This document shows positions 5,958 through 64,000 of a DNA stretch of 64,000 nucleotides, in pieces. Each line of letters begins with the position of its first letter. Within the stretch, counting starts at the first letter, position 1. The DNA is from Eledone cirrhosa (Eukaryota): NCBI GenBank assembly GCA_964016885.1, contig OZ024743.1:306900001-306964000 (forward strand), in the 5' to 3' direction. The notes below the pieces were generated by a model. The model had not been told where the DNA came from. It searched no databases and saw only the letters and a program-made list of their open reading frames with translations. The position numbers were made by a program, and so were the translations under genes.

Positions 5958-5989
5958 AGAACAAAAGATGGTTAAAAGAGTTCCATGTA

Positions 5990-9978: not shown

Positions 9979-10041
<63 letters not shown>

Positions 10042-10043
<2 letters not shown>

Positions 10044-10454: not shown

Positions 10455-10634
10455 AACGAAGGAATTGTGGTAAGGAACCAGATGGACCATAACGCACCAG
10501 AGTACTCAATACTTAGGGTAGTAGAGTGGGAAATAGGAAAAGGTATGACCCCGACGGCAGAGCTCAAGCCCTTTCGACGGCTATTTCAGCCGTCGAAAGG
10601 GCTTGAGCTCTGCCGTCGGGGTCATACTTTTTCC
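10455..10634. mobile_element. Short fold-back PLE-type insertion, copy 3
   Basis: Same family as 2034-2268. Confidence 0.75.
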
Positions 10635-13525: not shown

Positions 13526-13602
13526 CGACTGATCTGGAGGAGAGATATGGAATAAAGCCTGATATAAATCTCTCACCCAGAGAAATCGGAAGATCCTATT
13601 CA

Positions 13603-17061: not shown

Positions 17062-17074
17062 TATATACAGTATG

Positions 17075-20609: not shown

Positions 20610-20611
<2 letters not shown>

Positions 20612-20785
20612 CAAATGAATTGTGGTAAGGAACCAAATGGACCATAACGCACCAGAGTACTCAATACTTAGAGTAGTAGAGTGGGTAATAGGAAAAAGTA
20701 TAACGCCGACGGCAGAGCTCAGGCCGTTTCGACGGCTATTTCTGGACGTCGAAACGGCTTGAGCTCTGCCGTCGGGGTCATACTT

Positions 20786-20789
<4 letters not shown>
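20610..20789. mobile_element. Short fold-back PLE-type insertion, copy 4
   Basis: Same family as 2034-2268. Confidence 0.75.
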
Positions 20790-23360: not shown

Positions 23361-24080
23361 TCAGAAGATCCCATTAATTCTTTCCATTGTGTTTTTCTCT
23401 AATTCCTGACTGTTCTCTAGTGGGGGTGTTTTAACTACGATCTTTATATCATCAACGTAGCGGGAGTACATTATCAGGGTTATGGGGTCTTCTAATTGTT
23501 CTTTAAGTTTAAGTTTAAGTCTACTGTCCCACCATACCATGAATAAGTTAGCTATGTCGCCTGCAATGCTAACACCAATGGCTGCTCCCTCCTCTTGGGC
23601 ATATGTTTTTCCATTAAATTTGAACATATGTTTCTTAAGGGTTAATTTTATGCTGGCCCCCACCGCATGTGCAATCATTTTCTTTAGTTCATCGTGGTTT
23701 TCGGGGGTCCGTATGGCTCTGGTCCACCCGTTCCATCTAGCTGTGTGGGTTTTCTTGGCCATTGAAGTAATGGTAGGTGGTCTGCCTCTTGCTGGTCTTG
23801 TAGGGCACAGGTTGCTAAGGTCATATGTGTCTAGATAATTATTACTATAAGTAAGTTTAAGTAGGAGTCCCAGCTCACTGGTTACAATCCCACGGAACTC
23901 AACATTGTTCTCACTGATGATTTCTACGCATTTCTCCACAGCAAAATCCACATCAATAGATGGATACAGGGACACAACATCCATACTACCTATTATGCAG
24001 TTTGTTAGGTCCCTAGATCGGTTACTCTCGGTGATTCTGCTGAGGAGGTCCTCCGTGCTGTGACATACATCTGGGGACAT
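23361..24080 (-). pseudogene. Penelope-like reverse transcriptase fragment
   Basis: IGSMDVVSLYPSI, FKFNGKTYAQEEGAAIG, ANLFM, YSRYVDD; next to an oppositely oriented HHR-bearing pLTR (24160-24375). Confidence 0.8.
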
Positions 24081-24246
24081 TTCAATGATGGGGCGTATGA
24101 TCAGGGAGAGGAAGTAGGACAGTCTGTAGTTACTGGCAATGTTAGCTCCATGAATGGCACCATGAATGGACCTGTTATTTTTCTCTCAAAACATTTTTCG
24201 GATTCCACCCTGCTCGTCCCTTTGATCTTTCTAATTACTCATTCTT

Positions 24247-24288
24247 TTTTCTGGTGAAGGTGAAGGACTAGAGTCCGAAACGTTAAGA
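24247..24288 (+). ncRNA. Degenerate minimal HHR (family of 39947)
   Basis: CTGGTGA..ggac-taga-gtcc-GAAA-cgtt-aaga, with a small duplication. Confidence 0.45.
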
Positions 24289-24369
24289 CCCTCTTCCGAC
24301 TATTTCAAGCGTTAAACTAATATATGCCTTCCATATATTGTACCGATTGCGTTGTTATTTCTGTTTACC

Positions 24370-24458
<89 letters not shown>

Positions 24459-24732
24459 ACAAAAAGTTATCGCTCTACATGGCTGAATACAATAAATGTA
24501 ATCTGAGTTTTTCGAATATTAATAATAATATTCGATTTGTTTGCAATTTTGCAAACAACCCTCTTTTAAGCCATGTCAGTAGAATGAGCCCCTCATTCTT
24601 GCTCTTGTGTTGGCATGACACTAATGTTTCTGGGTGATTACCCTTCATCAGTGCAGTTCACTGTTCACCTCCCAACTGTCAGAGCTAGTGAAAATATATG
24701 ATATTTTCTAAAATATACAGTGACTGATCGCC

Positions 24733-30081: not shown

Positions 30082-30086
<5 letters not shown>

Positions 30087-32374
30087 AATAATGATGGCTG
30101 CGCGTTGCAAATGGTGGTGCATATGAAAAAGTAAGTCCTTCATCAGTGACCCTCCAACCGTCCCACGCATTTCATCGCTTTAAGGGCCATATGCCTCAGG
30201 TTGGTGCGAACAACGGCTAAAAAGAGTCGTTGGGACACGTAAATAAAGGGGACGTTAGGGTAACAAACAAAATGGTTTAAGCAACGGAAAGTGAGAAGAA
30301 ATAGACAAGTCCCAGATCTCTATGAATATAAACTCGGTGAAATCGTGAACAAGAGACAAAAGACCATCAAACCTGGTTGAAATGTGAGCAAGGAAGGAAT
30401 TTCGCACAGGTCTAACGGGAGAAGAAGAAGAAGAAGAAGAAGAAGAAGAAGAAGAAGAAGAAGAAGAAGAAGAAGAAGAAGAAGAAGAAGAAGAAGAAGA
30501 AGAAGAAGAAGAAGAAGAAGAAGAAGAAGAAGAAGAAGAAGAAGAAGAAGGGGTCTGGTCTACGAATTCGGTAAACATAAGTTTTGTGAAGTCGCAGACG
30601 AGAGAGAGAGAAAAAAATGCCATACCAGCTTGACCAAGACCGCGCGAGAAAAGAATTACACACAGGTCAAACTTGAAGGAGGAGGAGGAAAGAGGAGGAG
30701 GAGAGGTAGTTACAGAGAATGAGTGAGTGAAAGTTGAGGAGGAGGCTAACAGAGAGAGAGACTGCTAGAAAGGGTAAAAGGTACAAAGAACGAGAAAGGG
30801 TAAAAGGTACAAAGAACGAAACAGACGGGTGGCAGCAGAAGAAAGATTATGTGTAAATATGATAATAATGATGGCTGCGCGTTGCAAATGGTGGTACATA
30901 TGAAAAAGTAAGTCCTTCATCAGTGACCCTCCAACCGTCCCACGCATTTCATCGCTTTAAGGGCCATATGCCTCAGGTTGGTGCGAACAACGGCTAAAAA
31001 AAGTCGTTGGGACACGTAAATAAAGGGGACGTTAGGGTAACAAACAAAATGGTTTAAGCAACGGAAAGTGAGAAGAAATAGACAAGTCCCAGATCTCTAT
31101 GAATATAAACTCGGTGAAATCGTGAACAAGAGACAAAAGACCATCAAACCTGGTTGAAATGTGAGCAAGGAAGGAATTTCGCACAGGTCTAACGGGAGAA
31201 GAAGAAGAAGAAGAAGAAGAAGAAGAAGAAGAAGAAGAAGAAGAAGAAGAAGAAGAAGAAGAAGAAGAAGAAGAAGAAGAAGAAGAAGAAGAAGAAGAAG
31301 AAGAAGAAGAAGAAGAAGAAGAAGAAGAAGGGGTCTGGTCTACGAATTCGGTAAACATAAGTTTTGTGAAGTCGCAGACGAAAGAGAGAGAGAGAAAAAA
31401 TTCCATACCAGCTTGACCAAGACCGCGCGAGAAAAGAATTACACACAGGTCAAACTTGAAGGAGGAGGAGGAAAGAGGAGGAGGAGAGGTAGTGACAGAG
31501 AATGAGTGAGTGAAATACGTGTCCCAACGACTTTTTTTAGCCGTTGTTCGCACCAACCTGAGGCATATGGCCCTTAAAGCGATGAAATGCCTGGGACGGT
31601 TGGAGGGTCACTGATGAAGGACTTACTTTTTCATATGCACCACCATTTGCAACGCGCAGCCATCATTATTATCATATTTACACATAATCTTTCTTCTGCT
31701 GCCACCCGTCTGTTTCGTTCTTTGTACCTTTTACCCGTTCTCGTTCTTTGTACCTTTTACCCTTTCTAGCAGTCTCTCTCTCTGTTAGCCTCCTCCTCAA
31801 CTTTCACTCACTCATTCTCTGTAACTACCTCTCCTCCTCCTCTTTCCTCCTCCTCCTTCAAGTTTGACCTGTGTGTAATTCTTTTCTCGCGCGGTCTTGG
31901 TCAAGCTGGTATGGCATTTTTTTCTCTCTCTCTCGTCTGCGACTTCACAAAACTTATGTTTACCGAATTCGTAGACCAGACCCCTTCTTCTTCTTCTTCT
32001 TCTTCTTCTTCTTCTTCTTCTTCTTCTTCTTCTTCTTCTTCTTCTTCTTCTTCTTCTTCTTCTTCTTCTTCTTCTTCTTCTTCTCCCGTTAGACCTGTGC
32101 GAAATTCCTTCCTTGCTCACATTTCAACCAGGTTTGATGGTCTTTTGTCTCTTGTTCACGATTTCACCGAGTTTATATTCATAGAGATCTGGGACTTGTC
32201 TATTTCTTCTCACTTTCCGTTGCTTAAACCATTTTGTTTGTTACCCTAACGTCCCCTTTATTTACGTGTCCCAACGACTTTTTTTAGCCGTTGTTCGCAC
32301 CACCTGAGGCATATAGCCCTTAAAGCGATGAAATGCCTGGGACGGTTGGAGGGTCACTGATGAAGGACTTACTT

Positions 32375-32380
<6 letters not shown>
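30082..32380. mobile_element. ~777-bp tandem array (~1.85 units) plus inverted ~1.15 units; retrozyme-like; each unit holds a (GAA)n tract
   Basis: Units start at 30082 and 30859; inversion at ~31515; (TA)n flanks; the right arm lacks the ~40-nt tail. Confidence 0.8.
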
Positions 32381-32429: not shown

Positions 32430-32477
32430 TATTAATTCAAAATATTAACAAAATAGATATTCTTGTGATCAAGTATA

Positions 32478-32540
32478 TTTTATTATACATATTTCAGAGG
32501 TACTGAGTTAAGTTCAACAGTACGTCCTCATCAGATAAAA
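32478..32540 (-). ncRNA. Minimal type I hammerhead ribozyme in pLTR fragment 32430-32642
   Basis: ttttat-CTGATGA-ggacgtactg..cagtacctct-GAAA-TATGTAT-A-ataaaa. Confidence 0.75.
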
Positions 32541-32638
32541 TAAGATGATACACGACATACCTTGACATAGTAGATGGTTAAGATTCAGGCATTGTAAAAC
32601 TCATTCTTTGATGTATTCATTGAACCTTGTTTAACTTT

Positions 32639-32740
<102 letters not shown>

Positions 32741-32891: not shown

Positions 32892-33660
<769 letters not shown>

Positions 33661-35792: not shown

Positions 35793-36003
35793 GACTATAT
35801 ATGTGTTTATACCTGTATTTTTTATCGTTGGTCAATCAATGATAAACAAATGAATTAACTGTGGAGATATAAAAGATACAGAAGCGAAAACCAACCAAAC
35901 AGTGAGTGTGTTCTGTTATTATTTCTGGCTATATTATTACAACAATATGAACCTCCCCAAGTATAACAATATATATATATATTTATTAAAATAACAGATT
36001 AAA

Positions 36004-36052
36004 GTTTAAGCAAAGAATTGCTGCTTTCACCCTTAACGGGATCTTCTGAAAC
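36004..36052 (-). ncRNA. HHR with variant core (CAGAAGA), 3' pLTR
   Basis: gttt-CAGAAGA-tccc-gttaa-gggt-GAAA-gca..tgc-TT-aaac. Confidence 0.65.
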
Positions 36053-37008
36053 TAACAAAGTCAATCTGTGAACGCAGAAGTGAATATTTCAAAAAAACGT
36101 TGCAACCGGAGGAAGACAGGAAGACGATACTTTGGTTCGTGGAAACGTTCGCTGGCAAAAGAACAGGAAAAAAAAACGAATATAATACGTCATTATTTGG
36201 ATTGGTGAAAAACAATTACGCGCAAAGACAGAACCACGTTTATGGTATAAAAGAGGTCGTAGACTAATGTTCTCTTAGGTGGTTCATAGAGACGTTCTCT
36301 GACAATGAACGAAAAAACGAAGATAATACGTCATATGTGGAGCGTGGAGAACAATTGCACGCAAAGACAAAACCACGTAAATGGTATAGCAGAAGTCGTA
36401 GACTAAAATTCTAACTAGGAGATCGAATGAATCTCCGCTTCAGAGTTAAGAACAAAGTAAATAAATACAATACAGAGGTAATAGAAATTAAATAAATACA
36501 TACACGCATACAAATACGTACATACACAAGCATACGCGAAAACACTTACCATAGGTATACAAAACCACGCACATATAAATATGTGTGTGTGTGTATGCGT
36601 GTATACAAATAAATAAATAATTAAATAAACGTATATAAATAAACAAATACGTATATAACAAGCGCACACACATACCTACATGTAAATACACAAATGTTCG
36701 GAGACGTAAGTCAACCAAATCATGAAGTACACATATACACACACCCTACATACGTACGAACCTGCATACTCACACAGACGCAAAACATCCGTATACACAT
36801 AACCAAAAGGATATGTACCAGAATATATAAAATATACGCCATAACATATACAATTAAATATACGTACGAGAAAGTATACGTACCTTCACAAAACATACAT
36901 GTAATATATACTTACCTATACAAATAAGTAATGGTATAAACATAACATATACTTAGCTACCACATCAAGACGTAAAATATCCACGTATAGATCGTACAAT
37001 CCGTTAGG

Positions 37009-39122
37009 CTATAATGTGGGGCTGTAATACAGGAAAGTTTTGTGCAATTTATGTTTACAAGCCGAAATTGCCTGCGATTTTTTGTTTAATAAGTGGTCTG
37101 TGGCGTAGAGTATTTCCAGGGCCTTAGCGGCGCAGAGGTCACATGGTCTTTTATTGCCGTTATACTATCTAGCCCTAGCTAGGATCTTCCAGTGTAACTT
37201 ATATTGGGTGTGGTTGTCTTTTAGACGCCAGATATAAGCTGAAAGTGACGTCATATTCCTTCTTAGAGGGTAACGAAAAGAATGGGTATGCATGTAAAGA
37301 CGCTGCTTGAATCTATTGGCGGTTAACCCTATGTAGGACATACGGGACGTGGGTGTTTCAACCTTACATTTGTAGACAATGTTACTAGAGAGGCATTTCC
37401 CGGATAGGGGCAGTCAACCCGATTCCTACAATTACAGTTAGTACTAATTACAGGGTTGCACGTGTTCCTACGGCTAGGTAGTTTAGCTAAATTTGAAGCT
37501 GTGATGTTATGTGCAAGGTCAGGAGTCGTAGAGTAAGAAATTTTAATAGTATTTCTATTAAAAATGTTACTATATTTATGTGTAGGGGGGGGGGGGAATG
37601 CTTCGTAATAAGGGAGAGAAAGATCTTAACTAATGGTGTGGCCACCTCCATATTATATGGTGGGTTATACCATATAATGCGTCGGGATCTATTTCTTCTA
37701 GGTCTATTCTCGTACTCTGTATATGCTACCTTATCGACAAATCCACTCCGAGCAAGAGCTTCATTGTAATATGTGGAATGGTCGTTGAAAATAAGCTCGT
37801 TAGTAGAAAGACGGGAAAGCCTCAAAGAAACGTTTCTTACCAGGTTCTTGGTTATGCTGGCAGGATGGTTAGAATGCTTACTTATGTAATTAAGCGTATC
37901 ATTCGGCTTTCTATACGGGTAATACAAGCTATTCGATAAATTGAGGGTAACGTCGAGGTAATTAACGACCGAGAGGTTGGCCTCAACCTTTATAGAGAGG
38001 TTGAAGCCCTTAAAGAAGGCTGTGAGTTCTTTTCTGAACCTGTCGCAAGCACGTGGGCCGCACTTAGTCATGGTCAAAAGACCATCATCACGGTACAAAC
38101 CACAGCCCACGTTGGGGAATTCGTCCTTGATAAAAAAAAGAAGGAAAAGGCCGATAAGATCAGTAACCTCCGCAGAATCGCTGGCGCCCATACTCACATC
38201 GAATGGGGTACTATTAGATTTGTTAATCCAAATAGAGTCGTCGAAATTAATCTGACTTACGGGCATTGAGGATGACATCAACTTCGAAATCCTTAACCAC
38301 TGTGAGTGTTTTAGCGAAATTGATAGCTCTAAGAAGTGGTAAAGTGATGAAGGAGTAGTAATTATTGATGTCGAATTAGATAAAACGGCAATGTTCCTTG
38401 TTGCATATGCCGTTGAACCAATCAATCACCGCGAAAGAATTGTTCCACGGTGCAAGAGGGGCCAAACTTCTAATTTCAGGTATAATTCTATCAAGAATCC
38501 TTTTACTAAGTCTACCTAAATCGGACTTCGTAGGGTTAATAAGCCGAATAGAGGGGTTGTTCGGAAAATTGGATTTGTGATCCTTCAGGGTAAAGTGGGG
38601 AGAGATAGGGTCCAGAGGTTCGATCCGGTCCAGGATGTTGAGATCAGAGGTGATTTTAAACCCAGCATCGTTGATTTCATTAATGACGCACCGATTAGTT
38701 TTACGGTAATCCTTAGTTACAGCATTATGTAGCAGTTGAAGGTAAGTACTGCGCTCCACTTGATATAGGTTGCCAGTTTTGTCGGAATGGACGTGCACAG
38801 CATTAGAATCCTTAATAGAACGAATTCTATTCTTCAGGTCCTGCTGGAAGGAATTGCTCCTATTCCGAAATTTGATACTCCGTATGAGTTCCAAGACATC
38901 ATTTTCGAAGGGTAGCAATGCTGGGTTACACGGGGGGTTATTATAGGTTTCAAACCGAAATTTATCCTGTTTGTTGTCAGCTTGTCGCTGATTATCGAAA
39001 TAAAAGGCACGCCAACGCAACCTTTTAATGAACGCGTCCGTTTTCTGTATCAGGAGTTTTAGGAATGTTTTCCTGCTTGGTACGGGTATGTTCTTTGTAG
39101 AAATATTCAGATGTTTCTGCAT
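37009..39122 (-). pseudogene. PLE ORF: RT plus GIY-YIG endonuclease, frameshifted
   Basis: Track ORFs 38376-39122 (DKTGNLY, RLINPTKSDLG) and 37487-38425 (MGASDSAEV, GLYRDDGL, YLDVTLNL, YPYRKPN, IIWYNPPY). Manual translation of 37440-37009 gives CNC..CP, IVYKC, YIGLT..FKQR, CDLC, CKH. Confidence 0.88.
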
Positions 39123-39277
39123 GATGGATATAAGTCAATAGAGTGCTCAATCGAGGGAGCCAAATAGTAATAATAATAAATTTGAAGACTAAAATCCAAA
39201 GAGGGCTCGATAGGGATAAATATATATCAAATATATAAGAACCGTAGAGCAAATATTTATTAAAATAACAGATTAAA

Positions 39278-39326
39278 GTTTAAGCAAAGAATCGCTGCTT
39301 TCACCCTTAACGGGATCTTCTGAAAC
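39278..39326 (-). ncRNA. HHR with variant core (CAGAAGA), 5' pLTR
   Basis: Same fold as 36004-36052, about 155 nt upstream of the ORF ATG. Confidence 0.65.
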
Positions 39327-39344
39327 TAACAAAGTCAATCTGTA

Positions 39345-39644: not shown

Positions 39645-39719
<75 letters not shown>

Positions 39720-40070
39720 CTTACGCACGTGCATAAGTATAGCGCTTTTTACAAAATGTTTTTTTTTCCATTTCAGGTCGACGCGCTCCATCATCCACTT
39801 TTCTAAAAAATAAATCATACACAAAACGCCAGCACCAACAGTTTTGCAAGAGATGTCAACATATATGGACCTGTTATTTTTATCTAAGGACATTTTTTCC
39901 AATTCCATCCCTCCCGTCCCCTCAATCTATCTTATTTCTCATTCTTTCTTCTGATGAAGGACTAACGTCCGAAATGTTAAGACCCTCTTCCTGCTATATC
40001 AAATGTTAACCTAATATATCCCTTCCATATACTGTACCGATTGTGTTATTATTTCTGTTTACTTTTTACA
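39345..40070 (+). mobile_element. PLE 3'UTR/pLTR remnant
   Basis: Family repeated at 24160-24375, 47812-48193 (inverted) and ~57080-57255; contains an HHR. Confidence 0.65.
39947..39982 (+). ncRNA. Ultra-minimal type I HHR (36 nt)
   Basis: tctt-CTGATGA-a-ggac-taac-gtcc-GAAA-tg-T-T-aaga. Confidence 0.7.
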
Positions 40071-40071
40071 T

Positions 40072-41709: not shown

Positions 41710-44700
41710 ATGGCTGAACACAACATCAACAAGAAAATTAAGGAAGTATCGAAGACAAATAACAAAGAAGGTAATCAAACTTTATTCAGTTGTAGCTACA
41801 GAAGAAACCGAAATTATAAATCGCATTTCTCTTGGAGTTGCGAACTTAATAATGATTTATTTAGTTGTTATAAAATGGCAAAAAACAATCCCTCCATTGG
41901 CTATATGAATAGAATGAAGCTACACTGGGACGAAATGCACCCAGAGCTAAATTATTTCACAGTGAAACAATTACGCCAACAAGCGACGTTTGTTGAACGT
42001 AAAAATAAAATAAATATTATTAATTGTAAGTCCCCCACAACAAACATGGAATCAACAACACGTGCTACAGATCGCCATGCTACTAGACTTCCTAGCAGCC
42101 AGGTCGAACAGCGCCTTGAAACAACTATGCCTGTACCATCTAAGTCTACCTCGAATGCTGGGGAATACACTATCGATAATAATAATAATCGAAGAAATAA
42201 TAATAATAATCGAATAAATGCGACACCACGTATACCATCTGAGTCTACCTCGACTGTTGTGGAAAATACTATCGATAATGATAATCAAAAGTATAAACAA
42301 TTGAAAATTTCCCTCAACGAAATCTTCAAGAGAGAAATTAACTCATGTATAAATATCTCTGTGGCTGAACGTGTTAAAATGACAATGGTGAATAAAAAAC
42401 CAAATAATGAAATACTACGTGTTATTGACGAAATAGGGGATGAATATTTATGACGGATAAAAACCCCAACATTTTGGCAAATCAACGCCTGTTTATATGC
42501 CTTAGCAATGACAGTGAAGCATTATCTTGGTGATAGCAGAGATATTAACAAGAACAAAACGCCACCAAAAATACCATCATATATAACTAAAATAGAAAAA
42601 AAGAGTGCTGACCTACGAAAAAACATAGGATATGTGACAATGCTCCTTACATGCAAACAAACACAAAAAAACTCACTCCTCACCAACAAAGAGTGAAAAA
42701 TAAAATAGAGACGATGTTTGGTAACAGTAGAACCAGAACTCTCCAATATAAGCTGATCACCCTCAAACAAGAATTGAGAGCTGTTAGCGAAAAACGCCGA
42801 TACCTGAAGAAGGTAGATGAGAGAAAAATGCTTAATAAAAGATTCAGACGAAACCAAACATCAGTCTATAGAGATATGAAGGGCAAAATAATTGTTTCTA
42901 CGTTTGGCACAAGGCCAGCAATTACCCAGTGCATTACTGGTACTTTATTTTATCGACCCCGTAAGGATGAAAGGCAAAGTTAACCTCGGCGGAATTTGAA
43001 CTCAGAATGGCAAGGGTCGTAACTCTATACGTCAAATATGGCGTCCGACCCTCTACCAATACTGCCAACACTAGGCCCCATCCCAGAAATACATAGATTC
43101 CTTTTGGAGAAAAATATGGGGTGAAAAGAAGAATTTCAACCAAGATGCAGTGTGGCTAAGAGAAATCCGAAAGAACTATTGCTCCTACACTACAACAAAA
43201 ACATACGAAATAAGTGAGTGTACCCTTGAGACTGTGATAGGAAAACTCCAAGATAAGAAAACACCAGGAAGAGACATGATTGTCGGCTACTGGTACAAAA
43301 AACTAATATTCTATCGGTGGTATCTTACTGACCTCTACCAACAAGTTCTTAAGGGAGATACACTTATACCAGGTTGACATTAGCACAAACGTTACTGGTC
43401 CCCAAGAACAAAGACACCCACTTGGCAAAAAACTACCGACCCATTGCATGCCAGAACCTGATGTATAAGATGTATACAGCCTGCCTGAACCTATTCCTCC
43501 AAGATCACTGTGAAAATAATAACATCATCACAGATGAACAAGCAGCTGGAAAGAAAAGGGTTTGGGGATGTGCTGAACAACTCCTAATCAACAAAACTGC
43601 GATGTCGGAGGTGCGAGAACTTAGGAGGAATATGACTACAGTCTGGCTGGACTACAAGAAAGCTTTCGATTCTGTTCCCCACTCTTGGATGATAGAGGCC
43701 CTCCAACTTGCTAAAGTCCCAGACATTATTGTCAGAGCCATAGAGAGGCTGTCTTCTTCTTGGGCTACTATCCTAAGGTTAAAGACAGAGAGGGAGGACT
43801 CTATTTTCACTGATAAAATAAAATATTGCAGGGGTATATTTCAGGGGGACAGTCTCTCTGTGATATTGTTCATCTTGTCATTAAACCCCTTGTCCTTTCT
43901 GCTCAAGAAATGTGAGGGATACATCATTGGCTCACAGGAAGACAGAAATACGAACCTAACCCATAACTTCTTTGTGGACGATCTGAAACTCTATGCCAAG
44001 AACATGGATGGGATGAAGAAAAATCTTGACCTGGTTACAACGTTCTCAAAGGATATAGGAATGGAGTTTGGCCAAGATAAATGCTCATACATGACTGTAA
44101 AGCGGGGAAAAACAACAACCCAATCTAGCAACATTGTCATCAATAGTCTAACTGTTTCACCGATATCTGATGAGGACTGCTACAGATACCTGGGGATAGA
44201 TGAGAACATATCCTATAATGGTATCTGTAATAAAGAACGCGTAACCAGGGAATACTACAGCCAATTAAGAAAGATCTGGTCATCGGAACTCTCTGCGCAA
44301 AACAAAACAGTGGCTCACAATGTGTTTGCTGTGCCTGTCCTAACACCAACGTTTGGAATACTCAATTGGACGATAGACGAAATCCGAGCAGTTGATGTTG
44401 GAACTCGAAAAATACTGAACAACACCGGAAACTTCCACATCAACAGTGACATAGACCGCCTTTACTTGAAACGTAGGCAGGGAGGCAGAGGCCTAACATC
44501 AGTCCAGACATTTGAATGTCGCATCATATCTCTCCGACAACATCTACGAACCTCGAAGCATAGGAGCCCGTCTCTCGAGAAAGTATATCTGCATGAAACA
44601 GATAAGATCATGAGAGTTGGGAAGGAACTCCTTGTGAGATATTCTCTGTGTGATAATCAAAAACTCACACCCAGGGATGTCGCTCAGCAGTATCGCAGTG

Positions 44701-45534
44701 AATCCATGGATGAAATACTGTATGCCTATCAGCAAAAAATCATGCATGGATATGTTGCCAGGAAGCTCCAAAGTGAGAGTAATATAGATAAGGAAAGTAG
44801 TCTATCTTGGACCAACAACCGCTATATTGGCTCCCACTTTGAAGGATACGCTTTTGCAATCCAAGAACAGGAGATTAGCACGAAATACCTGATTCACAAA
44901 AGAGATAGGGATGCAGGCAAAACACCTAGATGTGATAACAAGTGCAGACTGCCGAACTAACATCGAGGATATCACGCATGTCATCAGCAGCTGTCCAAAG
45001 ATGTCATCGCGGTACTATCTACCTATGAGGCATGATGTAGTGGCCAAAACACTGTACAATGCAGTTCGTAAAAAAGATAGCCCCGATGATAAACACATTA
45101 AAAGATACAACAATGTGGAAGACATCCATGTACATAATATGAAAGAGTACTGGTGGAATGTTCCAGTAAAAACCCCAATAAAATGCAGGCATAACATGCC
45201 AGATATTGTGGTATGGGACAGGGAGAGGAAAACATGCACAGTAGTGGAAATTAGCTGCCCAGCAGATGCCAATATAATATCAAAGATTAGTGAAAAGGAG
45301 AATATTTATGTAGAACTGATGAGAAATCTGCAGATACTCCACCCTGATTACACCTTCAGATTTTTGCCTGTGATTATTGGGGCACTGGGATATGTTAGTA
45401 ACTGCCTCAATACAAATCTTGAGAAGCTAGGCTTCATAGGAACAGAAAGAACACAACTAGTTAGGAAATTACAAGTACAATCCATTAATGGAACAGTAAA
45501 AATATGTAAAACATTCAAAACATTTTGCATCTAA
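41710..45534 (+). pseudogene. LINE single ORF (Myb-like, RT, CCHC, RLE) with stops, frameshifts and a SINE insertion
   Basis: WSCELNNDLFSCY..GYMNRMKLHW; NYRPIAC, WLDYKKAFDSVPH, GIFQGDSLS, FFVDDLKLY; HNMPDIVVWD, VEISCP. Confidence 0.9.
42889..43070 (-). mobile_element. tRNA-derived SINE inserted in the LINE
   Basis: Reverse complement of the 34140 family. Confidence 0.8.
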
Positions 45535-47255: not shown

Positions 47256-48127
47256 GATGGCTGCCCCCTCGTTATCGAGTATGGCCATTGCACGGTATAC
47301 CATTATTAATAATTATTAATTAATTCTATCGTACAATGCCTGTTCGTGAAGATTTTTTTTAAAGTGAGGAAAGACAGTGCACTGAGCCAATCCCACTCTC
47401 TGAGCGACAGTGGCTATAACCTGAAAAGAAGAAAAGATCAACATCATCGGTAACTACTGAGCTGCAGGTTTTATATCGGAGTTAACCCAGTTTCCTGAGT
47501 TGCCTTCTAGAAGAATGCCCTGACAAAGGCTAGGGCTTTAACCACGCGATCGGGTGTCCAGCCCGACTATTTCTATGTCCCCGCGCATATACATACACAT
47601 GCACCCATGCATATATACATATACATGTACATACATATGTACATGTGTATATACATATTTACACAGTTTTGGATGGCCGTTGATTTTTACGAGTTCTTCC
47701 GCCTTTTGTCAGGTTTTGTTTTTTGTCCTGCCGGGTGTCCAAAATCACCCCCTCACCAAGTAAACTTGGTGGGGTTGCCGGTTTAGTCGCCGACGACCCG
47801 ACCATGCGACATACAGTATATGGAAGGGATATATTAGGTTAACATTTGATATAGCAGGAAGAGGGTCTTAACATTTCGGACGTTAGTCCTTCATCAGAAG
47901 AAAGAATGAGAAATAAGATAGATTGAGGGGACGAGTGGGTTGGAATTGGAAAAAATGTCTTTAGATAAAAATAACAGGTCCATATATGTTGACATCTCTT
48001 GCAAAACTGTTGGTGCTGGCGTTTTGTGTATGATTTATTTTTTAGAAAAGTGGATGATGGAGCATGTCTACCTGAAATGGAAAAAAACCGTTTTGTAAAA
48101 AGAGCTATACTCATGCACGTGAGTAAG

Positions 48128-48176
<49 letters not shown>

Positions 48177-50674: not shown

Positions 50675-51392
50675 TCACCACCACTATTATCATCACAGTC
50701 ACTATACCACCACCACCACCACAACCACTTGCCCACCACCAGCACCAGCACCACTACCACCACCACTATTATCATCACAGTCACTATACCACCACCACCA
50801 CTGCCCACCACCAGCACCACCACCACCACCACCACTATTATCATCACAGTCACTATACCACCACCACCACCACAACCACTTGCCCACCACCAGCACCAGC
50901 ACCACTACCACCACCACTATTATCATCACAGTCACTATACCACCACCACCACTGCCCACCACCAGCACCACCACCACCACCACCACTATTATCATCACAG
51001 TCACTATACCACCACCACCACTGCCCACCACCAGCACCAGCACCACCACCACCACCACTATTATCATCACAGTCACTATACCACCACCACCACTGCCCAC
51101 CACCAGCACCAGCACCACCACCACCACCACTATTATCATCACAGTCACTATACCACCACCACCACTGCCCACCACCAGCACCACCACCACCACCATCACT
51201 ATTATCATCACAGTCACTATACCACCACCACCACTGCCCACCACCAGCACCACCACCACCACCACCACTATTATCATCACAGTCACTATACCACCACCAC
51301 CACTGCCCACCACCAGCACCACCACCACCACCACTATTATCATCACAGTCACTATACCACCACCACCACCACCACCAGTGCCCACCACCAGC

Positions 51393-51423
<31 letters not shown>

Positions 51424-52240
51424 CCACCACCACCACTTCCCACCACCAGCACCACCACCACTAATCCGCCCCAACTACCACTACAACACCACCAGCACCA
51501 CCACCACCACCACCACCACTAATCCTCCCCAACTACCACTACAACACCACCACCACCACCACCACTGCCCACCACCAGCACCACCACCACCACCACTATT
51601 ATCATCACAGTCACTATACCACCACCACCACCACCACCAGTGCCCACCACCACCACCAGCACCACCACCACCACCACTAATCCTCCCCAACTAGCACTAC
51701 AACACCACCACCACCACTGCCCACCACCAGCACCAGCACCACCACCACCACCACTAATCCTCCCCAACTACCACTACAACACCACCACTGCCCACCACCA
51801 GCACCAGCACCACCACCTCCACCACTAATCCTCCCCAACTACCACTACAACACCACCACCACCACCACTGCCCACCACCAGCACCACCACCACCACCACT
51901 AATCCTCCCCAACTACCACTACAACACCACCACCACCACCACCACCACTGCCCACCACCAGCACCACCACCACCACTGCCCACCACCAGCACCACCACCA
52001 CCACCACTAATCCTCCCCAACTACCACTACAACACCACCACTGCCCACCACTAGCACCAGCACCACCACCACCACTAATCCTCCCCAACTACCACTACAA
52101 CACCACCACCACCACTGTCCACCACCACCACCACCACCACCACCACCACCACCACCACTGCCCACCACCACCACCACCACCACTAATCCTCCCCAACTAC
52201 CACTACAACACCACCACCACTACCACCACCACTGCCCACC

Positions 52241-52271
<31 letters not shown>

Positions 52272-52476
52272 CTAATCCTCCCCAACTACCACTACAACAC
52301 CACCACCACTACCACCACCACTGCCCACCACCAGCACCAGCACCACCACCACCACCACCACTAATCCGCCCCAACTACCACTACAACACCACAAGCACCA
52401 CCACCACCACCACCACCACTAATCCTCCCCAACTACCACTACAACACCACCACCACCACCACCACCACTGCCCACC

Positions 52477-52507
<31 letters not shown>

Positions 52508-52688
52508 CTAATCCTCCCCAACTACCACTACAACACCACCACCACCACCACCAGCACCACCACCACCACTAATCCTCTCCAACTACCACTACAACACCAC
52601 CACTGCCCACCACCACCACCACCACCACCACTAATCCTCCCCAACTACCACTACAACACCACCACCACCACCACCACCACTGCCCACC

Positions 52689-52719
<31 letters not shown>

Positions 52720-54125
52720 CCACTAATCCTCCCCAACTACCACTACAACACCACCACTGCCCACCACCACCACCACCACCACCACTAATCCTCCCCAACT
52801 ACCACTACAACACCACCACCACCACTGCCCACCACCAGCACCACCACCACCACCACTAATCCTCCCCAACTACCACTACAACACCACCACTGCCCACCAC
52901 CAGCACCACCACCACCACCACTAATCCTCCCCAACTACCACTACAACACCACCACTGCCCACCACCAGCACCACCACCACCACCACTAATCCTCCCCAAC
53001 TACCACTACAACACCACCACCACTACCACCACCACTGCCCACCACCAGCACCACCACCACCACCACTAATCCTCCCCAACTACCACTACAACACCACCAC
53101 TGCCCACCACCAGCACCACCACCACTAATCCTCCCCAACTACCACTACAACACCACCACCACCACTGCCCACCACCACCACCACCACCACCACCACCACC
53201 ACTGCCCACCACCACCACCACCACCACCACCACTAATCCTCCCCAACTACCACTACAACACCACCACCACTACCACCACCACTGCCCACCACCAGCACCA
53301 CCACCACCACCACTAATCCTCCCCAACTACCACCACCACTGCCCACCACCAGCACCACCACCACCACCACTAATCCTCCCCAACTACCACCACCACTGCC
53401 CACCACCAGCACCACCACCACCACCACTAATCCTCCCCAACTACCACTACAACACCACCACCACCACTGCCCACCACCACCACCACCACCACCACCACCA
53501 CCACCACCACTGCCCACCACCACCACCACCACCACCACCACTAATCCTCCCCAACTACCACTACAACACCACCACCACTACCACCACCACTGCCCACCAC
53601 CAGCACCACCACCACCACCACTAATCCTCCCCAACTACCACCACCACTGCCCACCACCAGCACCACCACCACCACCACTAATCCTCCCCAACTACCACCA
53701 CCACTGCCCACCACCAGCACCACCACCACCACCACTAATCCTCCCCAACTACCACTACAACACCACCACTGCCCACCACCAGCACCACCACCACCACCAC
53801 TAATCCTCCCCAACTACCACTACAACACCACCACCACCACTGCCCACCACCACCACCACCACCACCACCACCACCACCACTGCCCACCACCACCACCAGC
53901 ACCACCACCACCACCACTAATCCTCCCCAACTACCACTACAACACCACCACCACTACCACCACCACTGCCCACCACCAGCACCACCACCACCACCACTAC
54001 CACCACTAATCCGCCCCAACTACCACTACAACACCACCACTGCCCACCACCACCACCACCACCACCACTAATCCTCCCCAACTACCACTACAACACCACC
54101 ACCACTACCACCACCACTGCCCACC

Positions 54126-54156
<31 letters not shown>

Positions 54157-54450
54157 CTAATCCTCCCCAACTACCACTACAACACCACCACCACCACTAA
54201 TCCTCTCCAACTACCACTACAACACCACCACTGCCCACCACCACCACCACCACCACCACTAATCCTCCCCAACTACCACTACAACACCACCACCACCACC
54301 ACCACCACTGCCCACCACCAGCACCACCACCACTAATCCGCCCCAACTACCACTACAACACCACCACTGCCCACCACCAGCACCACCACCACCACCACTA
54401 ATCCTCCCAAACTACCACTACAACACCACCACCACCATCACCACAACTGT
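50675..54450. repeat. (CAC)n-based minisatellite with two ~55-65-bp unit types
   Basis: Marker ctattatcatcacagtcactata (50680-51620), then ctaatcctccccaactaccactacaa (51460-54425). Confidence 0.9.
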
Positions 54451-55446
54451 CACCACCTTCAAAGTCAACACCGCCACCACCACCACCACCCTACGACTAC
54501 CATCACCACTACTCCACATCCAACACCGCTACCACTAACACCACCACCACCACTAAACACCACCACCACCAACACCGCTACCACTAACACCACCACCACC
54601 ACTAACACCACCACCACCAACGCCAGCACCACTAACTCAACAACCACCATCACCCCCGACAAAATCAACCATAATCATCAGCAGCAGCAGCAGCATCGCC
54701 GCCGCCGCCACCACTATACCGTCACCATCATCACTACCACTACCACACGTCCATCCCCACAACCACTGTCAACATCAACATCACCACCACCACCACCAAT
54801 GTCATCGCCATCCCTGCTACCACCACCACCAGCAATTAACTGGTAATGAAAATGAAAAGAAGAAGAAGAAGAAAAGAAGAAGAAGAAGAAGAAGAAGAAG
54901 AAGAAGAAGAAGAAGAAGAAGAGAATGACTGCGGTTTCAGAAGAAATTGGTTAGTTTTAATTAATTGGTTCACTGGCTTAATGCCATGAGTTCATCACAC
55001 ACATATATACACATATATTCATACACATACACATCATATATACATGCACATATACACAAACACATATACACATACACATATACACATACATATATACACA
55101 TACATATATACAGATACACATACATTTATGCATGTATATAAATATATACATATATATATACACTTACATATATATATATATATACATACACATGCATATA
55201 TATACATATATGTACACACATACACATATATATACATACTTATATACACATACATATATACATATATACACATACACATATATATATACATACATATATA
55301 CACATATAAATACATATATACCTACATATATACACATATAAATACATATATACCTACATATATACACATATAAATACATATATACTTACATATATACATG
55401 CATATATACATACATATATACATATTTATATACACATACACATATA

Positions 55447-55529
55447 TTGGTATATTGGGTCGTCAAGTATGAAGTTTGTAGAAATTTGTAGACAAACAAC
55501 AGGTTTCTACAAATTTCATACTTAACGAG

Positions 55530-55534
<5 letters not shown>
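55447..55534. repeat. Small fold-back in (TA)-rich DNA
   Basis: tcgtcaagtatgaagtttgtaga / tctacaaatttcatacttaacga. Confidence 0.55.
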
Positions 55535-56885: not shown

Positions 56886-57155
56886 ATGCGAGACAAACCA
56901 CAACAGAAACACAAACCCTCCATCTCAATTTTACTTTTGAAAAGAATAAGAACTGTGAAACCGGTAAAGTAAATAAATATATATTCTTAAAAGGCTCCAG
57001 TTGCATTTTCGATTTCTTTTCCTTGACTCATTTTTTTATTTTGTTTTGTTTTTTAAACTCTTTTTCTTTTATATATATACCTGTTATTTTTCTTTAAAAA
57101 CTTTTTTCCAATACCACCCCGCCCGTCCTTTCAATCTTTCTAATTTCTCATTCTT

Positions 57156-57191
57156 TCTTCTTGTGAAGGAGTAGCGTCCGAAATGTTAAGA
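57156..57191 (+). ncRNA. Degenerate HHR of the 39947 family
   Basis: tctt-CTTGTGA-aggagtagcgtcc-GAAA-tgtt-aaga. Confidence 0.4.
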
Positions 57192-57256
57192 CCCTCTTAC
57201 TATATTCCTTCCATATACTGTACCAATTGTGTTGTTATTTATGTTTACCTTTTACA

Positions 57257-57770
57257 TGATGGCTGCAAACTCTGCTAAGAGAATTGCAATCACGTGTCAG
57301 ATTATAGAGTTTGGTGCACTTTTAGGCTACGGCAAGCCACACGAACCTGTAACATATCCTGAACAAACAATGCCTGTGCTTTGAACATTTTTTTAAGTGG
57401 GGAAAGGCGTTGCACTCGACCAAACCCACTCTCTGAACATCGAAAACACTACCCGAAAAGCGGAATTGGTCAACATCATCGGATGCTTCCGAAATCGCAA
57501 GTTTATTTTCAGAGTTCCCCTCTCTTAGAAGGCTGTTGTGACAACAACTGGGGGCCTTTCACTCCCAGGTTAAAAAAACAAAATTCCTATTTGGATGGCC
57601 GTTGACTCTGCCAAGTTCCTCCGCCCTTTACTGGGTTTTGTATTTCATCCCGCAGGGTATCCAAATATGACCGTCCCCACCAAGCTTGCCGGTTTAGTCA
57701 CCGACGACCCGACCATGAGACAGGTTGTACTGGGTTACATGTTATCAGTAGCCCTCGAGAGCGACCTGAT
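57257..57770 (-). mobile_element. RTE-related SINE-like element
   Basis: Family match. Confidence 0.65.
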
Positions 57771-58004: not shown

Positions 58005-58349
<345 letters not shown>

Positions 58350-58962: not shown

Positions 58963-59004
<42 letters not shown>

Positions 59005-59292
59005 CAAATAACGAAACGAAATTAAATTTCGTTTCGTTTGTAACTCACTTTTGTATGACTGACGCTTAAACAATTAAGTTAAAAATGTACATCCACATAT
59101 GTATACTGAAATACTAGTATGCATATGAATACACACACGTATACATATGTAGATGTACCGAGTTTTTCACTGGTCACTTCACTGTGAGTGTCCAGCTATT
59201 CTGTATGCAAACACACAGACAAACCGGTTTTTAGAGTCATACTGGTTTTTGAGGAAACACCTTTCCTCTATTCTCCAGAAAGCCAGACAAGG

Positions 59293-59337
59293 AATATTGA
59301 ACTAGTTTCGATGTTGTTACATCTCATCAGCAATATT
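59293..59337 (-). ncRNA. Minimal type I HHR (also 59759-59803, 60225-60269, 60691-60735, 61157-61201)
   Basis: aatattg-CTGATGA-gatgt-aaca-acatc-GAAA-CTAGT-T-caatatt. Confidence 0.9.
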
Positions 59338-61754
59338 TACCTATCTTCCGGCCTCTCTAGAGAAACGTAAAAGCACATATCGTTATATGCTTTTTCTATG
59401 AAAATTAGTAGTGGGCAGACTAATTTGCATAGAGCATGAGTACGTACCGGTTCAACGGAGACGATAAAAACAAATAACGAAACGAAATTAAATTTCGTTT
59501 CGTTTGTAACTCACTTTTGTATGACTGACGCTTAAACAATTAAGTTAAAAATGTACATCCACATATGTATACTGAAATACTAGTATGCATATGAATACAC
59601 ACACGTATACATATGTAGATGTACCGAGTTTTTCACTGGTCACTTCACTGTGAGTGTCCAGCTATTCTGTATGCAAACACACAGACAAACCGGTTTTTAG
59701 AGTCATACTGGTTTTTGAGGAAACACCTTTCCTCTATTCTCCAGAAAGCCAGACAAGGAATATTGAACTAGTTTCGATGTTGTTACATCTCATCAGCAAT
59801 ATTTACCTATCTTCCGGCCTCTCTAGAGAAACGTAAAAGCACATATCGTTATATGCTTTTTCTATGAAAATTAGTAGTGGGCAGACTAATTTGCATAGAG
59901 CATGAGTACGTACCGGTTCAACGGAGACGATAAAAACAAATAACGAAACGAAATTAAATTTCGTTTCGTTTGTAACTCACTTTTGTATGACTGACGCTTA
60001 AACAATTAAGTTAAAAATGTACATCCACATATGTATACTGAAATACTAGTATGCATATGAATACACACACGTATACATATGTAGATGTACCGAGTTTTTC
60101 ACTGGTCACTTCACTGTGAGTGTCCAGCTATTCTGTATGCAAACACACAGACAAACCGGTTTTTAGAGTCATACTGGTTTTTGAGGAAACACCTTTCCTC
60201 TATTCTCCAGAAAGCCAGACAAGGAATATTGAACTAGTTTCGATGTTGTTACATCTCATCAGCAATATTTACCTATCTTCCGGCCTCTCTAGAGAAACGT
60301 AAAAGCACATATCGTTATATGCTTTTTCTATGAAAATTAGTAGTGGGCAGACTAATTTGCATAGAGCATGAGTACGTACCGGTTCAACGGAGACGATAAA
60401 AACAAATAACGAAACGAAATTAAATTTCGTTTCGTTTGTAACTCACTTTTGTATGACTGACGCTTAAACAATTAAGTTAAAAATGTACATCCACATATGT
60501 ATACTGAAATACTAGTATGCATATGAATACACACACGTATACATATGTAGATGTACCGAGTTTTTCACTGGTCACTTCACTGTGAGTGTCCAGCTATTCT
60601 GTATGCAAACACACAGACAAACCGGTTTTTAGAGTCATACTGGTTTTTGAGGAAACACCTTTCCTCTATTCTCCAGAAAGCCAGACAAGGAATATTGAAC
60701 TAGTTTCGATGTTGTTACATCTCATCAGCAATATTTACCTATCTTCCGGCCTCTCTAGAGAAACGTAAAAGCACATATCGTTATATGCTTTTTCTATGAA
60801 AATTAGTAGTGGGCAGACTAATTTGCATAGAGCATGAGTACGTACCGGTTCAACGGAGACGATAAAAACAAATAACGAAACGAAATTAAATTTCGTTTCG
60901 TTTGTAACTCACTTTTGTATGACTGACGCTTAAACAATTAAGTTAAAAATGTACATCCACATATGTATACTGAAATACTAGTATGCATATGAATACACAC
61001 ACGTATACATATGTAGATGTACCGAGTTTTTCACTGGTCACTTCACTGTGAGTGTCCAGCTATTCTGTATGCAAACACACAGACAAACCGGTTTTTAGAG
61101 TCATACTGGTTTTTGAGGAAACACCTTTCCTCTATTCTCCAGAAAGCCAGACAAGGAATATTGAACTAGTTTCGATGTTGTTACATCTCATCAGCAATAT
61201 TTACCTATCTTCCGGCCTCTCTAGAGAAACGTAAAAGCACATATCGTTATATGCTTTTTCTATGAAAATTAGTAGTGGGCAGACTAATTTGCATAGAGCA
61301 TGAGTACGTACCGGTTCAACGGAGACGATAAAAACAAATAACGAAACGAAATTAAATTTCGTTTCGTTTGTAACTCACTTTTGTATGACTGACGCTTAAA
61401 CAATTAAGTTAAAAATGTACATCCACATATGTATACTGAAATACTAGTATGCATATGAATACACTCGGTACATCTACATATGTATACGTGTGTGTATTCA
61501 TATGCATACTAGTATTTCAGTATACATATGTGGATGTACATTTTTAACTTAATTGTTTAAGCGTCAGTCATACAAAAGTGAGTTACAAACGAAACGAAAT
61601 TTAATTTCGTTTCGTTATTTGTTTTTATCGTCTCCGTTGAACCGGTACGTACTCATGCTCTATGCAAATTAGTCTGCCCACTACTAATTTTCATAGAAAA
61701 AGCATATAACGATATGTGCTTTTACGTTTCTCTAGAGAGGCCGGAAGATAGGTA

Positions 61755-61799
61755 AATATTGCTGATGAGATGTAACAACATCGAAACTAGTTCAATATT
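61755..61799 (+). ncRNA. Minimal type I HHR in the inverted arm
   Basis: Same fold; predicted cleavage after 61792 (GUU). Confidence 0.9.
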
Positions 61800-62480
61800 C
61801 CTTGTCTGGCTTTCTGGAGAATAGAGGAAAGGTGTTTCCTCAAAAACCAGTATGACTCTAAAAACCGGTTTGTCTGTGTGTTTGCATACAGAATAGCTGG
61901 ACACTCACAGTGAAGTGACCAGTGAAAAACTCGGTACATCTACATATGTATACGTGTGTGTATTCATATGCATACTAGTATTTCAGTATACATATGTGGA
62001 TGTACATTTTTAACTTAATTATATATATATACATAATAGAAAAAACGAACAAGTTTCGTTTACATATGAAAAATATTTATTGCGTATCGACCTGTTACGC
62101 GCGTTTCGCATAGGGTTGGCTCAAGGTGGCCCATAGGTGTTATGAACCCGACTCCAGTATCGATCTGTCCTCAGTATTTCACCGTACTAGCTAGACTTTA
62201 TATATATATATATATATATTTATCACTTATTTTTTATCATTTATTTTGTTTTGACCTGTTTAGCTTGATTTAGTTTTTGGCTTGGGTGGTTAATGCTTTC
62301 TTGACCACCTTTTCAGTTTTGTATGGCTTCTTAACACATTGTTTAGCTCTGGTTTTTAACTATTGAGCACTTTGCCAGTATCATTTCTGATTTTTGCGTT
62401 TCGCTTCGCTTTTCCTGCCCGCCGAAAATGCGATTCTCGCTGAATCTTTATTTGTATATATATATATATATATATATATA

Positions 62481-64000
62481 ATAAATAATAATAATAATGA
62501 AATTATTGTGTAGAATGCTCAGGTGCACTACAACTCATCAAAGATGCATGTATAGTACATAGAATAATGTACAAATGTCAGGAAAATGAACAGTGTATGA
62601 GTCATGATATAATAACAATAACAATAATGAAATATTGTGTACAGTGCCCAGGTGCACCACAACTCATCAAAAAAGTGCATGTACAGTACATAGGGCAATG
62701 CGCAAACATCAGTAAAATGAACAGTGCACGAGTCATGATACACACATGTGTGCATGTGTATGGAAGGGGTACATCAGGTGTAGTTTTGGCGTATTTCGGG
62801 AAGCATGAGTGTCTTAAAGGATGCAGTGTCTCGGCAGCTAACAATTGACGCAGGCAGTTTGTTCCATGCTTCAGCAACTCTGAGCGTGAAAAAATGTCTG
62901 CGAAAGTCATGGGAGCTGTGCTGTTTTCTTATCTTGTAGGCATGTCCACGTGTGTTAGACACATGGAGATCAAAGAGGCGCTCAGGGTTGCAGTTGGCGA
63001 GATGGTTAAAAACTTTGTGGGTATTCACCAAGTCCATTGCCAGACGTCGGAGCTTCAATGAATCCATGCCCAGGGAAGCAAGGCGTTCAGAGTATGGTAG
63101 GTGTCTGGTGGAGGGTATGCGCTTGGTTGCACGTCTCTGAACAGTTTCCAGGAGGTCAATGTTCCGAGCAAGATAGGGGTTCCAGACTGATGATGCGAAT
63201 TCCAAGTGTGGTCGCACCATAGCTGTATACAGTTTTAAATAGATGGCTGGAGAGCGGCTAACAAAGGTCTTGCTGAGTGATGCCAAGACACCCTCGGCCT
63301 TCTTGACAATCTTAGAGACATGCTTTGTCCAACGCAAATCGTTGCTGACAGTAATGCCCAGGTCACGTTCACAAGAGGACTTTTTGATGTCAGTGTTGTG
63401 GAGGGAGTATGTGGATGCTGGATTTTTCCTTCCAAAATGCATGGTGGTACACTTGTCCACAGCCAGCTTCAGTTGCCAGTCTGTGATCCATTGCTGCATT
63501 GTGTCCAGGTCTGATTGTAGGAAAGAGTTGTAAATTTCAGGATCAGTCCTTTTGATTTCAAGGTACAGCTTGATGTCATCTGCATATTTTAGTACCGTGG
63601 CATTCTGTAAGTTGGCATCTATGTCATTAATATATGCCACAAACAAAAGAGGACCAAGAATAGATCCCTGTGGTACACCAGATGACATCTCATATGGTGA
63701 AGAATGCTGTCCTAGAACCGTGACTACTTCCTTTCGGCTGAGAATGAAGGATTTCAGCCAGTCGAAAAGATCATCCCTCACACCCATTGCAGAGAGTTTT
63801 GCCAAAAGTCTTTTGTGTGGCACAGAATTAAAAGCCTTAGCAAAGTCAAGGTAAACAACATCCACCCATGAGCCGCTGTCAGTGATCCGGGTGATGTCCT
63901 CAAGGAACTCGATAAGCTGATCACAGCAGCTGGAGTTAGGGATAAATCCAAACTGTGAGGGCCGGATGAGGCTGTGAGAGCTCCAGAAGTTCCAAAGTGT
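62481..64000 (-). mobile_element. CR1-clade LINE, 3' portion with (ATT)n tail
   Basis: RT ORF, 3'UTR and tail; continues beyond the window. Confidence 0.85.
62774..64000 (-). CDS. CR1-type reverse transcriptase, C-terminal part (open at the window edge)
   Basis: YLDFAKAFNSVPH, SGVPQGSILGPLLF, YADDIK, ERDLGI, VRPHLEF, LETVQRRATK, TRGH. Confidence 0.88.
   Translation of the reverse strand, partial: TLWNFWSSHSLIRPSQFGFIPNSSCCDQLIEFLEDITRITDSGSWVDVVYLDFAKAFNSVPHKRLLAKLSAMGVRDDLFDWLKSFILSRKEVVTVLGQHSSPYEMSSGVPQGSILGPLLFVAYINDIDANLQNATVLKYADDIKLYLEIKRTDPEIYNSFLQSDLDTMQQWITDWQLKLAVDKCTTMHFGRKNPASTYSLHNTDIKKSSCERDLGITVSNDLRWTKHVSKIVKKAEGVLASLSKTFVSRSPAIYLKLYTAMVRPHLEFASSVWNPYLARNIDLLETVQRRATKRIPSTRHLPYSERLASLGMDSLKLRRLAMDLVNTHKVFNHLANCNPERLFDLHVSNTRGHAYKIRKQHSSHDFRRHFFTLRVAEAWNKLPASIVSCRDTASFKTLMLPEIRQNYT

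Follow-up and report, generated by a model that had tools for sequence, protein, structure and literature searches.

The segment 59001–62020 of the window (the whole 64-kb stretch of DNA that was analysed) is very probably a non-autonomous Penelope-like element (PLE), of the kind called non-LTR retrozymes, recently inserted by a PLE RT/GIY-YIG endonuclease acting in trans. Its signature combines a hammerhead ribozyme in each unit, the lack of an ORF, tandem units joined to a head-to-head arm, a 71-nt tail, two fixed 3′ ends and (TA)n on both sides. The cDNAs cross intact cut sites, five times in the long arm and once in the short arm. The insertion is a young copy, and both of its ends lie well away from the ribozyme cleavage site, which indicates that reverse transcription began at internal sites of the RNA.

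Structure of the insertion

An exact 466-nt period spans 58998–61464, corresponding to 5.29 units of which the five full ones are identical. On the left, the (TA)n target tract occupies 58967–59000, and its last 3 nt (58998–59000) also match the element. The long arm follows at 59001–61464, with the ribozyme (sense) strand being the minus strand, and runs from a 5′ end at monomer nt 166 to a 3′ end at 59001 (58998). At the head-to-head junction (61463–61464), 2 nt are common to both arms; the inverted arm then occupies 61463–62020 on the plus strand (558 nt, 1.2 units) as an exact reverse complement that is 100% identical to the array, and is followed by the right target tract, (TA)6, at 62021–62032. 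Because (TA)n stands on both flanks, a target-site duplication is not discernible. The 5′ ends of both arms (nt 166 for the long and nt 137 for the short arm) lie in or beside a 20-bp stem predicted in the fold of the monomer (nt 142–213; 59087–59158, minus strand). The whole-monomer fold has a z-score of −8.5 (60 shuffles), which we do not take as support for a circle because hairpins are uninformative on topology.

The unit has a GC content of about 0.36, and its length of 466 bp is slightly over the 150–450 bp retrozyme range and within the 51–972 range. In 59001–62020 there is neither an ORF of at least 120 aa nor a stop-free sense stretch of more than 60 codons, and an RT plus GIY-YIG ORF, looked for in the same interval, was not found; the element is not autonomous. 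Its surroundings in the 64-kb window are microsatellite-rich, animal-type DNA, perhaps of a cephalopod, with several RT remnants.

The ribozyme is a type I hammerhead with a GUU triplet, described here with the hammerhead numbering and the NUH rule. Its first copy lies at 59293–59337 on the minus strand, with the cut between 59300 and 59299, and it recurs every 466 bp, so that five copies stand in the array and one in the inverted arm. Helix I has 7 bp, helix II has 5 bp and helix III is palindromic. The Rfam model HH9 matches 59277–59348 (E = 1.2e-7) with 36.5 bits, under its gathering score of 52, and no Rfam match was obtained at gathering level; miRNA-like Rfam matches, far under threshold, were dismissed as plain hairpins. 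Among variants from two sequencing runs, X1 (another sample) and X4, a helix II A-U pair is exchanged for U-A, with both changes present on one X4 contig, and the cleavage triplet varies only from GUU to GUC. From the compensatory helix II pair and the GUU/GUC triplet, the ribozyme of the 466-bp family looks to be under selection. Palindromic helix III of such a type is said to act in dimers (PMC4209133).

Fixed 3′ ends away from the cleavage site

The original prediction put the 3′ end of the array about 290 nt past the hammerhead, at a hairpin, and the end of the inverted arm 70 nt short of it. Our measurements agree closely: the long end lies 299 nt from the cut (302 nt counting the 3 nt common to the TA tract), with a 13-bp hairpin 9 nt before the terminus, and the inverted arm crosses one cut site (61792/61793) and stops at cut + 228, 71 nt before the long end. 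The intervening tail, exclusive to the long arm (59001–59071, minus strand), would be bounded by two RT start sites.

To see the same ends elsewhere, four of the 24 listed sequencing runs were compared against one permuted unit; part of the 466-bp unit is present in 20 of the 24 run rows listed, none of them an RNA run, which has no bearing on expression. In X1, 1095 contigs were placed on the permuted unit, and among the loose-end rows listed 12 contigs pass from the unit to TA repeats before 59464 (equivalent to 58998) and 2 before 59538 (equivalent to 59072), with no loose end at the hammerhead cut among the 6 of 42 rows listed. In the 64-kb window, we examined 27 hammerhead-linked arms and dropped eight (two with an internal TA run, three without a TA tract and three without a cut marker); none of the 19 mappable arms ends within 15 nt of a cut. 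The expectation that the ends are neither random nor at the cleavage site is thus supported, for the X1 rows listed and for the window, by the same two points in X1 contigs and by the window arms, and fixed, off-cut, paired ends are the rule in this window.

Summed X1 depth has no step at the short end and roughly halves past the long end (344k versus 645k in adjacent bins), which is a weak and unreliable measure. No reads of the raw-read runs X23 and X24 were placed on the unit, and pattern scans gave no matches in metagenome contigs or in viral contigs. Conservation of the tail was considered and set aside, as the lack of X1 variable sites in it (0 of 13, P about 0.10) is not significant.

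Related elements in the window

Other asymmetric palindromes that lie between (TA)n tracts and carry parts of a hammerhead occur in the window; they are sorted below by family letters (A–H), which are labels of the present analysis. Family B has five short palindromic copies in (TA)n with a tail of ∼80 nt (2035–2268, 5409–5584, 10455–10634, 20611–20789 and 58108–58307), and in all five the long end lies at cut + 97–101 and the short end at cut + 16–18. The second hammerhead half is kept in all copies (5-bp helix III, GUC) and CUGANGA is missing in all; in the copy at 2035, an 11-nt motif stands five times at the centre, resembling repeated re-priming. Family C (30083–32378) has a 777-bp unit present in 1.84 units, an 863-nt inverted arm, a 42-nt tail and an internal (AAG)n tract; it holds half a hammerhead core, with no GAAA within 513 nt after CUGANGA. 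At a single site, one variant is common within each arm and differs between the arms, a hint that each arm had its own template molecule. A heterogeneous multimer as the source of family C was rejected, as the events unique to unit 2 (five), unit 1 (one) and the first inverted pass (three) are compatible with later mutation.

Family D comprises five scattered minimal hammerhead elements (39718–40071, 47812–48129, 24154–24373, 57071–57257 and 765–863), three of which have a common 3′ end about 90 nt past the cut. The two copies of family E (10040–10249 and 32432–32641) have common ends; in the former, the start of the long arm lies about 4 nt past the cut, and this is the one 5′ end noted that could derive from a cut template. 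Family F (5957–9535) consists of hammerhead-bearing inverted arms with a tail of about 96 nt around a 900-bp palindrome, and this palindrome encodes a PLE endonuclease end with CxCX5C (7618–8352). Palindromes that adjoin TA or TC repeats, with no hammerhead detected, occur at 32933–33477 and 55456–55532, and about 4 kb of a degenerate (ACC)n higher-order repeat with extreme GC skew lies at 50706–54654.

Coding remnants were found as well. A broken PLE with an RT and GIY-YIG-type ORF occupies 35983–39343 on the minus strand and carries RWR, DKT and CxCX5C, motifs that are listed for the (TA)n-targeting Hydra clade (PMC8557442); both of its 87-nt direct pLTRs hold a hammerhead-like core with CAGAAGA, not CUGANGA. 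The divergent PLE ORFs escaped the Pfam and motif scans and were recognised from their translations. A divergent RT remnant with PLE-like motifs (23361–24080, minus strand; weak Pfam RVT_1, E = 1e-4) lies about 550 nt downstream of a hammerhead-like core at 24627–24651, and LINE-type RT remnants are found at 12383–14322, 43374–45534 and 62774–63865 (Pfam RVT_1, E from 8e-18 to 1e-25). PLE ORF remnants with Hydra-clade motifs are hence present in the window, and the mobiliser of the 466-bp element probably belonged to a (TA)n-targeting clade such as Hydra. A low-sensitivity comparison found no link of the 466-bp family to the PLE ORFs at 35983–39343 or 7618–8352, and neither an autonomous partner nor pLTR homology for the family was found in the 64-kb window by self-comparison, an insensitive method that also missed the older homologue at 16486.

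Terminal hairpins

The hairpin of the long end (monomer nt 262–290; 59010–59038, minus strand) has a z-score of −3.4 to −3.5, and the short end of the 466-bp element is without one. Similar terminal hairpins had been claimed at 16486 and 62040, and this stood for the first site only. The copy at 16486 is truly homologous to the 466-bp unit, with a local score of 157 against a mean of 32 and a maximum of 53 in 300 shuffles. This older homologue, of the same family as the array (16488–17065), has a long arm on the minus strand, a hairpin at 16488–16508, a degenerate hammerhead with its cut at 16750 and an inverted short arm up to 17065; its hairpin and short-arm end are at positions homologous to those of the 466-bp unit, although the hairpin is weak (z of −0.5 and −1.75), and its long end is not sharply mappable because no (TA)n bounds it. 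The site at 62040 is at chance level (one motif match outside the array versus 0.27 expected). It belongs to a separate older element between (TA)n tracts (62033–62200, minus strand), in which a complete hammerhead was not found by descriptor, only the second half of the core being present; its weak hairpin (62043–62061, 7 bp) lies about 10 nt from the (TA)n-bounded end, with z from −0.3 to −0.8.

Across the window, 11 ends were assessed, of which ten were long or single ends and one was a family F short end; a terminal hairpin with z below −2 stands at one of them. The short ends of families A and B score +1.0 and −1.3. We therefore reject the terminal hairpin as a general signal; it is family-specific. 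As the RT recognition site that had been proposed, the hairpin remains plausible within the 466-bp family, where by analogy with the PAc stem-loop it may be a binding element, and the proposal does not extend to the other ends or to the short end of the element itself.

Overlap of the ends with (TA)n

At 10 of the 13 ends whose element continuation is known, the element overlaps the flanking (TA)n by at least 3 nt. When each family end enters the count a single time, the overlap amounts to 3–5 nt at 7 of 8 independent ends, against a background of 0.04–0.14 per position (P about 2e-7, with the threshold picked post hoc). The exceptions are the short end of the 466-bp element itself (1 nt) and two of the five family-B short ends (0 nt). 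This overlap suggests that a nicked TA primer pairs with UAU/AUAU of the RNA at the start sites. Alternatively, a TA-cutting nuclease acting on the element would leave the overlap with no primer pairing. A U-rich or pyrimidine tract as a common end signal was rejected as weak, as 6 of 14 ends reach 14 of 20 positions versus a background of 26%.

A search by title and abstract start found no published TA overlap at PLE starts, most subscription journals being outside that search, and the word ‘microhomology’ is absent from PMC8557442. We regard the overlap as a new lead, for whose novelty the literature gives weak support.

A wider scheme, which we consider rather unlikely, is that (TA)n-targeting PLE enzymes prime like telomerase by 3–5 nt of pairing to a fixed internal UAU/AUAU, and that a protein dimer copies two separate RNA molecules, in the 466-bp family ribozyme-made circles, round and round, with the cDNAs then joined head-to-head. 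Were this scheme to operate, a retrozyme array would be built by a single insertion, with a tail equal to the distance between two primer-pairing sites.

Form of the template

From the off-cut ends, the original prediction had inferred a circular template, on the ground that a hammerhead-cut linear monomer would end at the cut. The initiation of RT at internal sites is upheld by ends that are fixed and away from the cut in X1 and in the window arms; the step from there to a circle fails. Since the RT start is what the 3′ end of an insert records, the ends speak for internal initiation and not for a circle, and the hairpin is internal in a cut monomer, an uncut multimer and a circle alike. Moreover, PAc is reported to start internally on linear RNA (PMC11167929). 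A single cut monomer is excluded because the cDNAs run over cut sites, and an uncut multimer would be crossed likewise.

For the 466-bp family, we marginally favour a re-ligated circle, at a confidence just short of even. The preference comes from unit homogeneity and the selected ribozyme, not from end positions. The units do not differ from one another or from the inverted arm, and three alleles found in all of them are at variance with essentially all X1 depth. Identical units with such private alleles fit a one-monomer bottleneck, as a circle gives; this argument is void if X1 is from another population or species. One cyclic contig of 496 nt (depth 4.5) was found in run X4, and neither a cyclic contig nor a back-joint is diagnostic of circular RNA because a tandem array gives the same. 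Circular templates were proposed for PLEs in 2014 (PMC4209133) and for retrozymes in 2020 (PMC7229834), and both the circle and the internal start are already published ideas.

That the template was instead a linear transcript reading through an existing tandem locus, left uncut and with the hammerhead idle at the insertion step, is a substantial though not an even possibility. Insertion of PAc is reported to be unchanged in hammerhead mutants, with uncut RNA as the main substrate (PMC11167929), PLE hammerheads are described as poor cutters in vitro (PMC4209133), and 8 of 9 Xenopus retrozyme dimers are without cleavage (bioRxiv 10.64898/2026.07.22.740005). In the window, each of the 10 family-B arms runs over the cut and none of the five copies reaches CUGANGA, as a fixed 5′ end would give, and the layout of family C points the same way. 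However, such a template needs a source array of at least six identical units with private alleles, which moves the homogeneity problem back one step, and it leaves the selection on the ribozyme unexplained.

The stronger form of the circular reading, which requires a circle made by the hammerhead as the template for rolling-circle RT and treats the terminal hairpin as a general recognition signal, is somewhat doubtful. Besides the 5.29 perfectly identical units with alleles unseen in X1 and the intact ribozyme with its compensatory change, it can draw on the hairpin at the homologous place of the 16486 copy, on the single-site family C variant that is common to both passes of one arm and absent from the other (as expected if each arm was copied from one monomer), and on retrozyme RNAs of coral, mussel and salamander, which accumulate as circles and are proposed RT templates (PMC7229834, PMC4209133). 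Against it, the end position cannot separate a circular from a linear template, PAc initiates internally on linear uncut RNA (PMC11167929), and family C shows tandem, inverted arm and tail, yet its next GAAA lies 513 nt past CUGANGA. Non-autonomous Chlamys also insert as multicopy head-to-tail arrays, most Chlamys being without canonical hammerheads (PMC8557442). The X1 depth halving past the long end, a weak measure, hints that most copies have only 1–2 units, and as a general signal the hairpin is significant at only 1 of 11 ends.

Other routes, in which only 1.2–1.3 units were reverse-transcribed and the long arm grew later by unequal crossover (a model for retrozyme arrays; bioRxiv 10.64898/2026.07.22.740005), was lengthened or made uniform in the assembly, or grew by RT jumping between cut monomers, or in which the ends were made by endonuclease at AT-rich element sites, are improbable. 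In their favour, 100% identity fits a very recent expansion, a tail has been attributed to endonuclease resolution (PMC8557442) and a TA-cutting nuclease would likewise give TA-like ends, but the inverted arm is already longer than one unit and crosses a cut without a scar, and in PAc the tail ends coincide with RT start sites (PMC11167929).

Discussion

In the mechanism that we propose for the 466-bp element, the enzyme would nick both (TA)n strands, and each DNA 3′ end would prime at an internal RNA site, one at cut + 299–302 just past the hairpin and the other at cut + 228, usually aided by 3–5 nt of pairing to UAU/AUAU. Both cDNAs would run 5′-ward along a more-than-unit template and then be joined head-to-head at the 20-bp stem. 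Several points weigh against this explanation, among them the tail of 71 nt compared with a usual 30–40 nt, the TA overlap of just 1 nt at the element's own short end, and the PAc start, which is reported to be non-homologous to the cut DNA (PMC11167929).

The element was compared with known systems as these are described in the covered sections of the cited papers. ORF-less hammerhead tandems are classed as non-LTR retrozymes (PMC7229834), which have been argued to be non-autonomous PLE derivatives (bioRxiv 10.64898/2026.07.22.740005). Like our array, those of animals have short, low-GC, ORF-less tandem units and a type I hammerhead whose palindromic helix III is tiny, and both circular RNA as RT template and PLEs as mobilisers have been proposed for them (PMC7229834; bioRxiv 10.64898/2026.07.22.740005). 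The 466-bp array differs in having the full PLE end signature, its cleavage and any circular form being putative; the words ‘inverted’ and ‘microsatellite’ are absent from PMC7229834, and array ends are undescribed in its covered sections.

Endonuclease-bearing PLEs provide that end signature, with a partial tandem, a head-to-head inverted arm, a tail at one end, a hammerhead and a bias to (TA)n targets, as in Hydra and Naiad (PMC8557442, PMC3846280), whereas the 466-bp element is without an RT or GIY-YIG ORF and has a longer tail and 5.29 units. PAc (Poseidon of Anolis) is alike in its two fixed internal starts downstream of the hammerhead, a stem-loop at the start, an AT-rich target and the extension of both strands; in vitro, its two internal start sites on linear RNA match the tail boundaries and hammerhead cleavage is dispensable (PMC11167929). 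The word ‘circular’ is absent from that paper. PAc starts inside an AC-rich stem-loop without target homology, whereas here the long start lies 9–12 nt 3′ of the stem and most ends overlap the (TA)n primer by 3–5 nt. Non-autonomous Chlamys such as MRC1 are likewise PLE derivatives, with pLTRs and multicopy head-to-tail insertions, but they belong to green algae, have other microsatellite targets and are mostly without canonical hammerheads (PMC8557442).

The layout and both mechanistic ideas are published, and the locus is not a discovery in kind. The tie between retrozymes and PLEs has so far been based on co-occurrence and pLTR homology; the present array, which is very young and 100% identical and has its PLE ends intact, adds an anatomical tie of retrozymes to the PLE machinery. 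As the locus gives the exact RNA, two start sites and the target, it offers a clean test case for a circular versus a linear template in the PLE cycle, and the value of the 466-bp insertion lies mostly in its use as a test substrate and in the TA-overlap lead. If the TA overlap holds genome-wide, primer–template pairing would become part of PLE initiation, and the likeness to telomerase would be closer.
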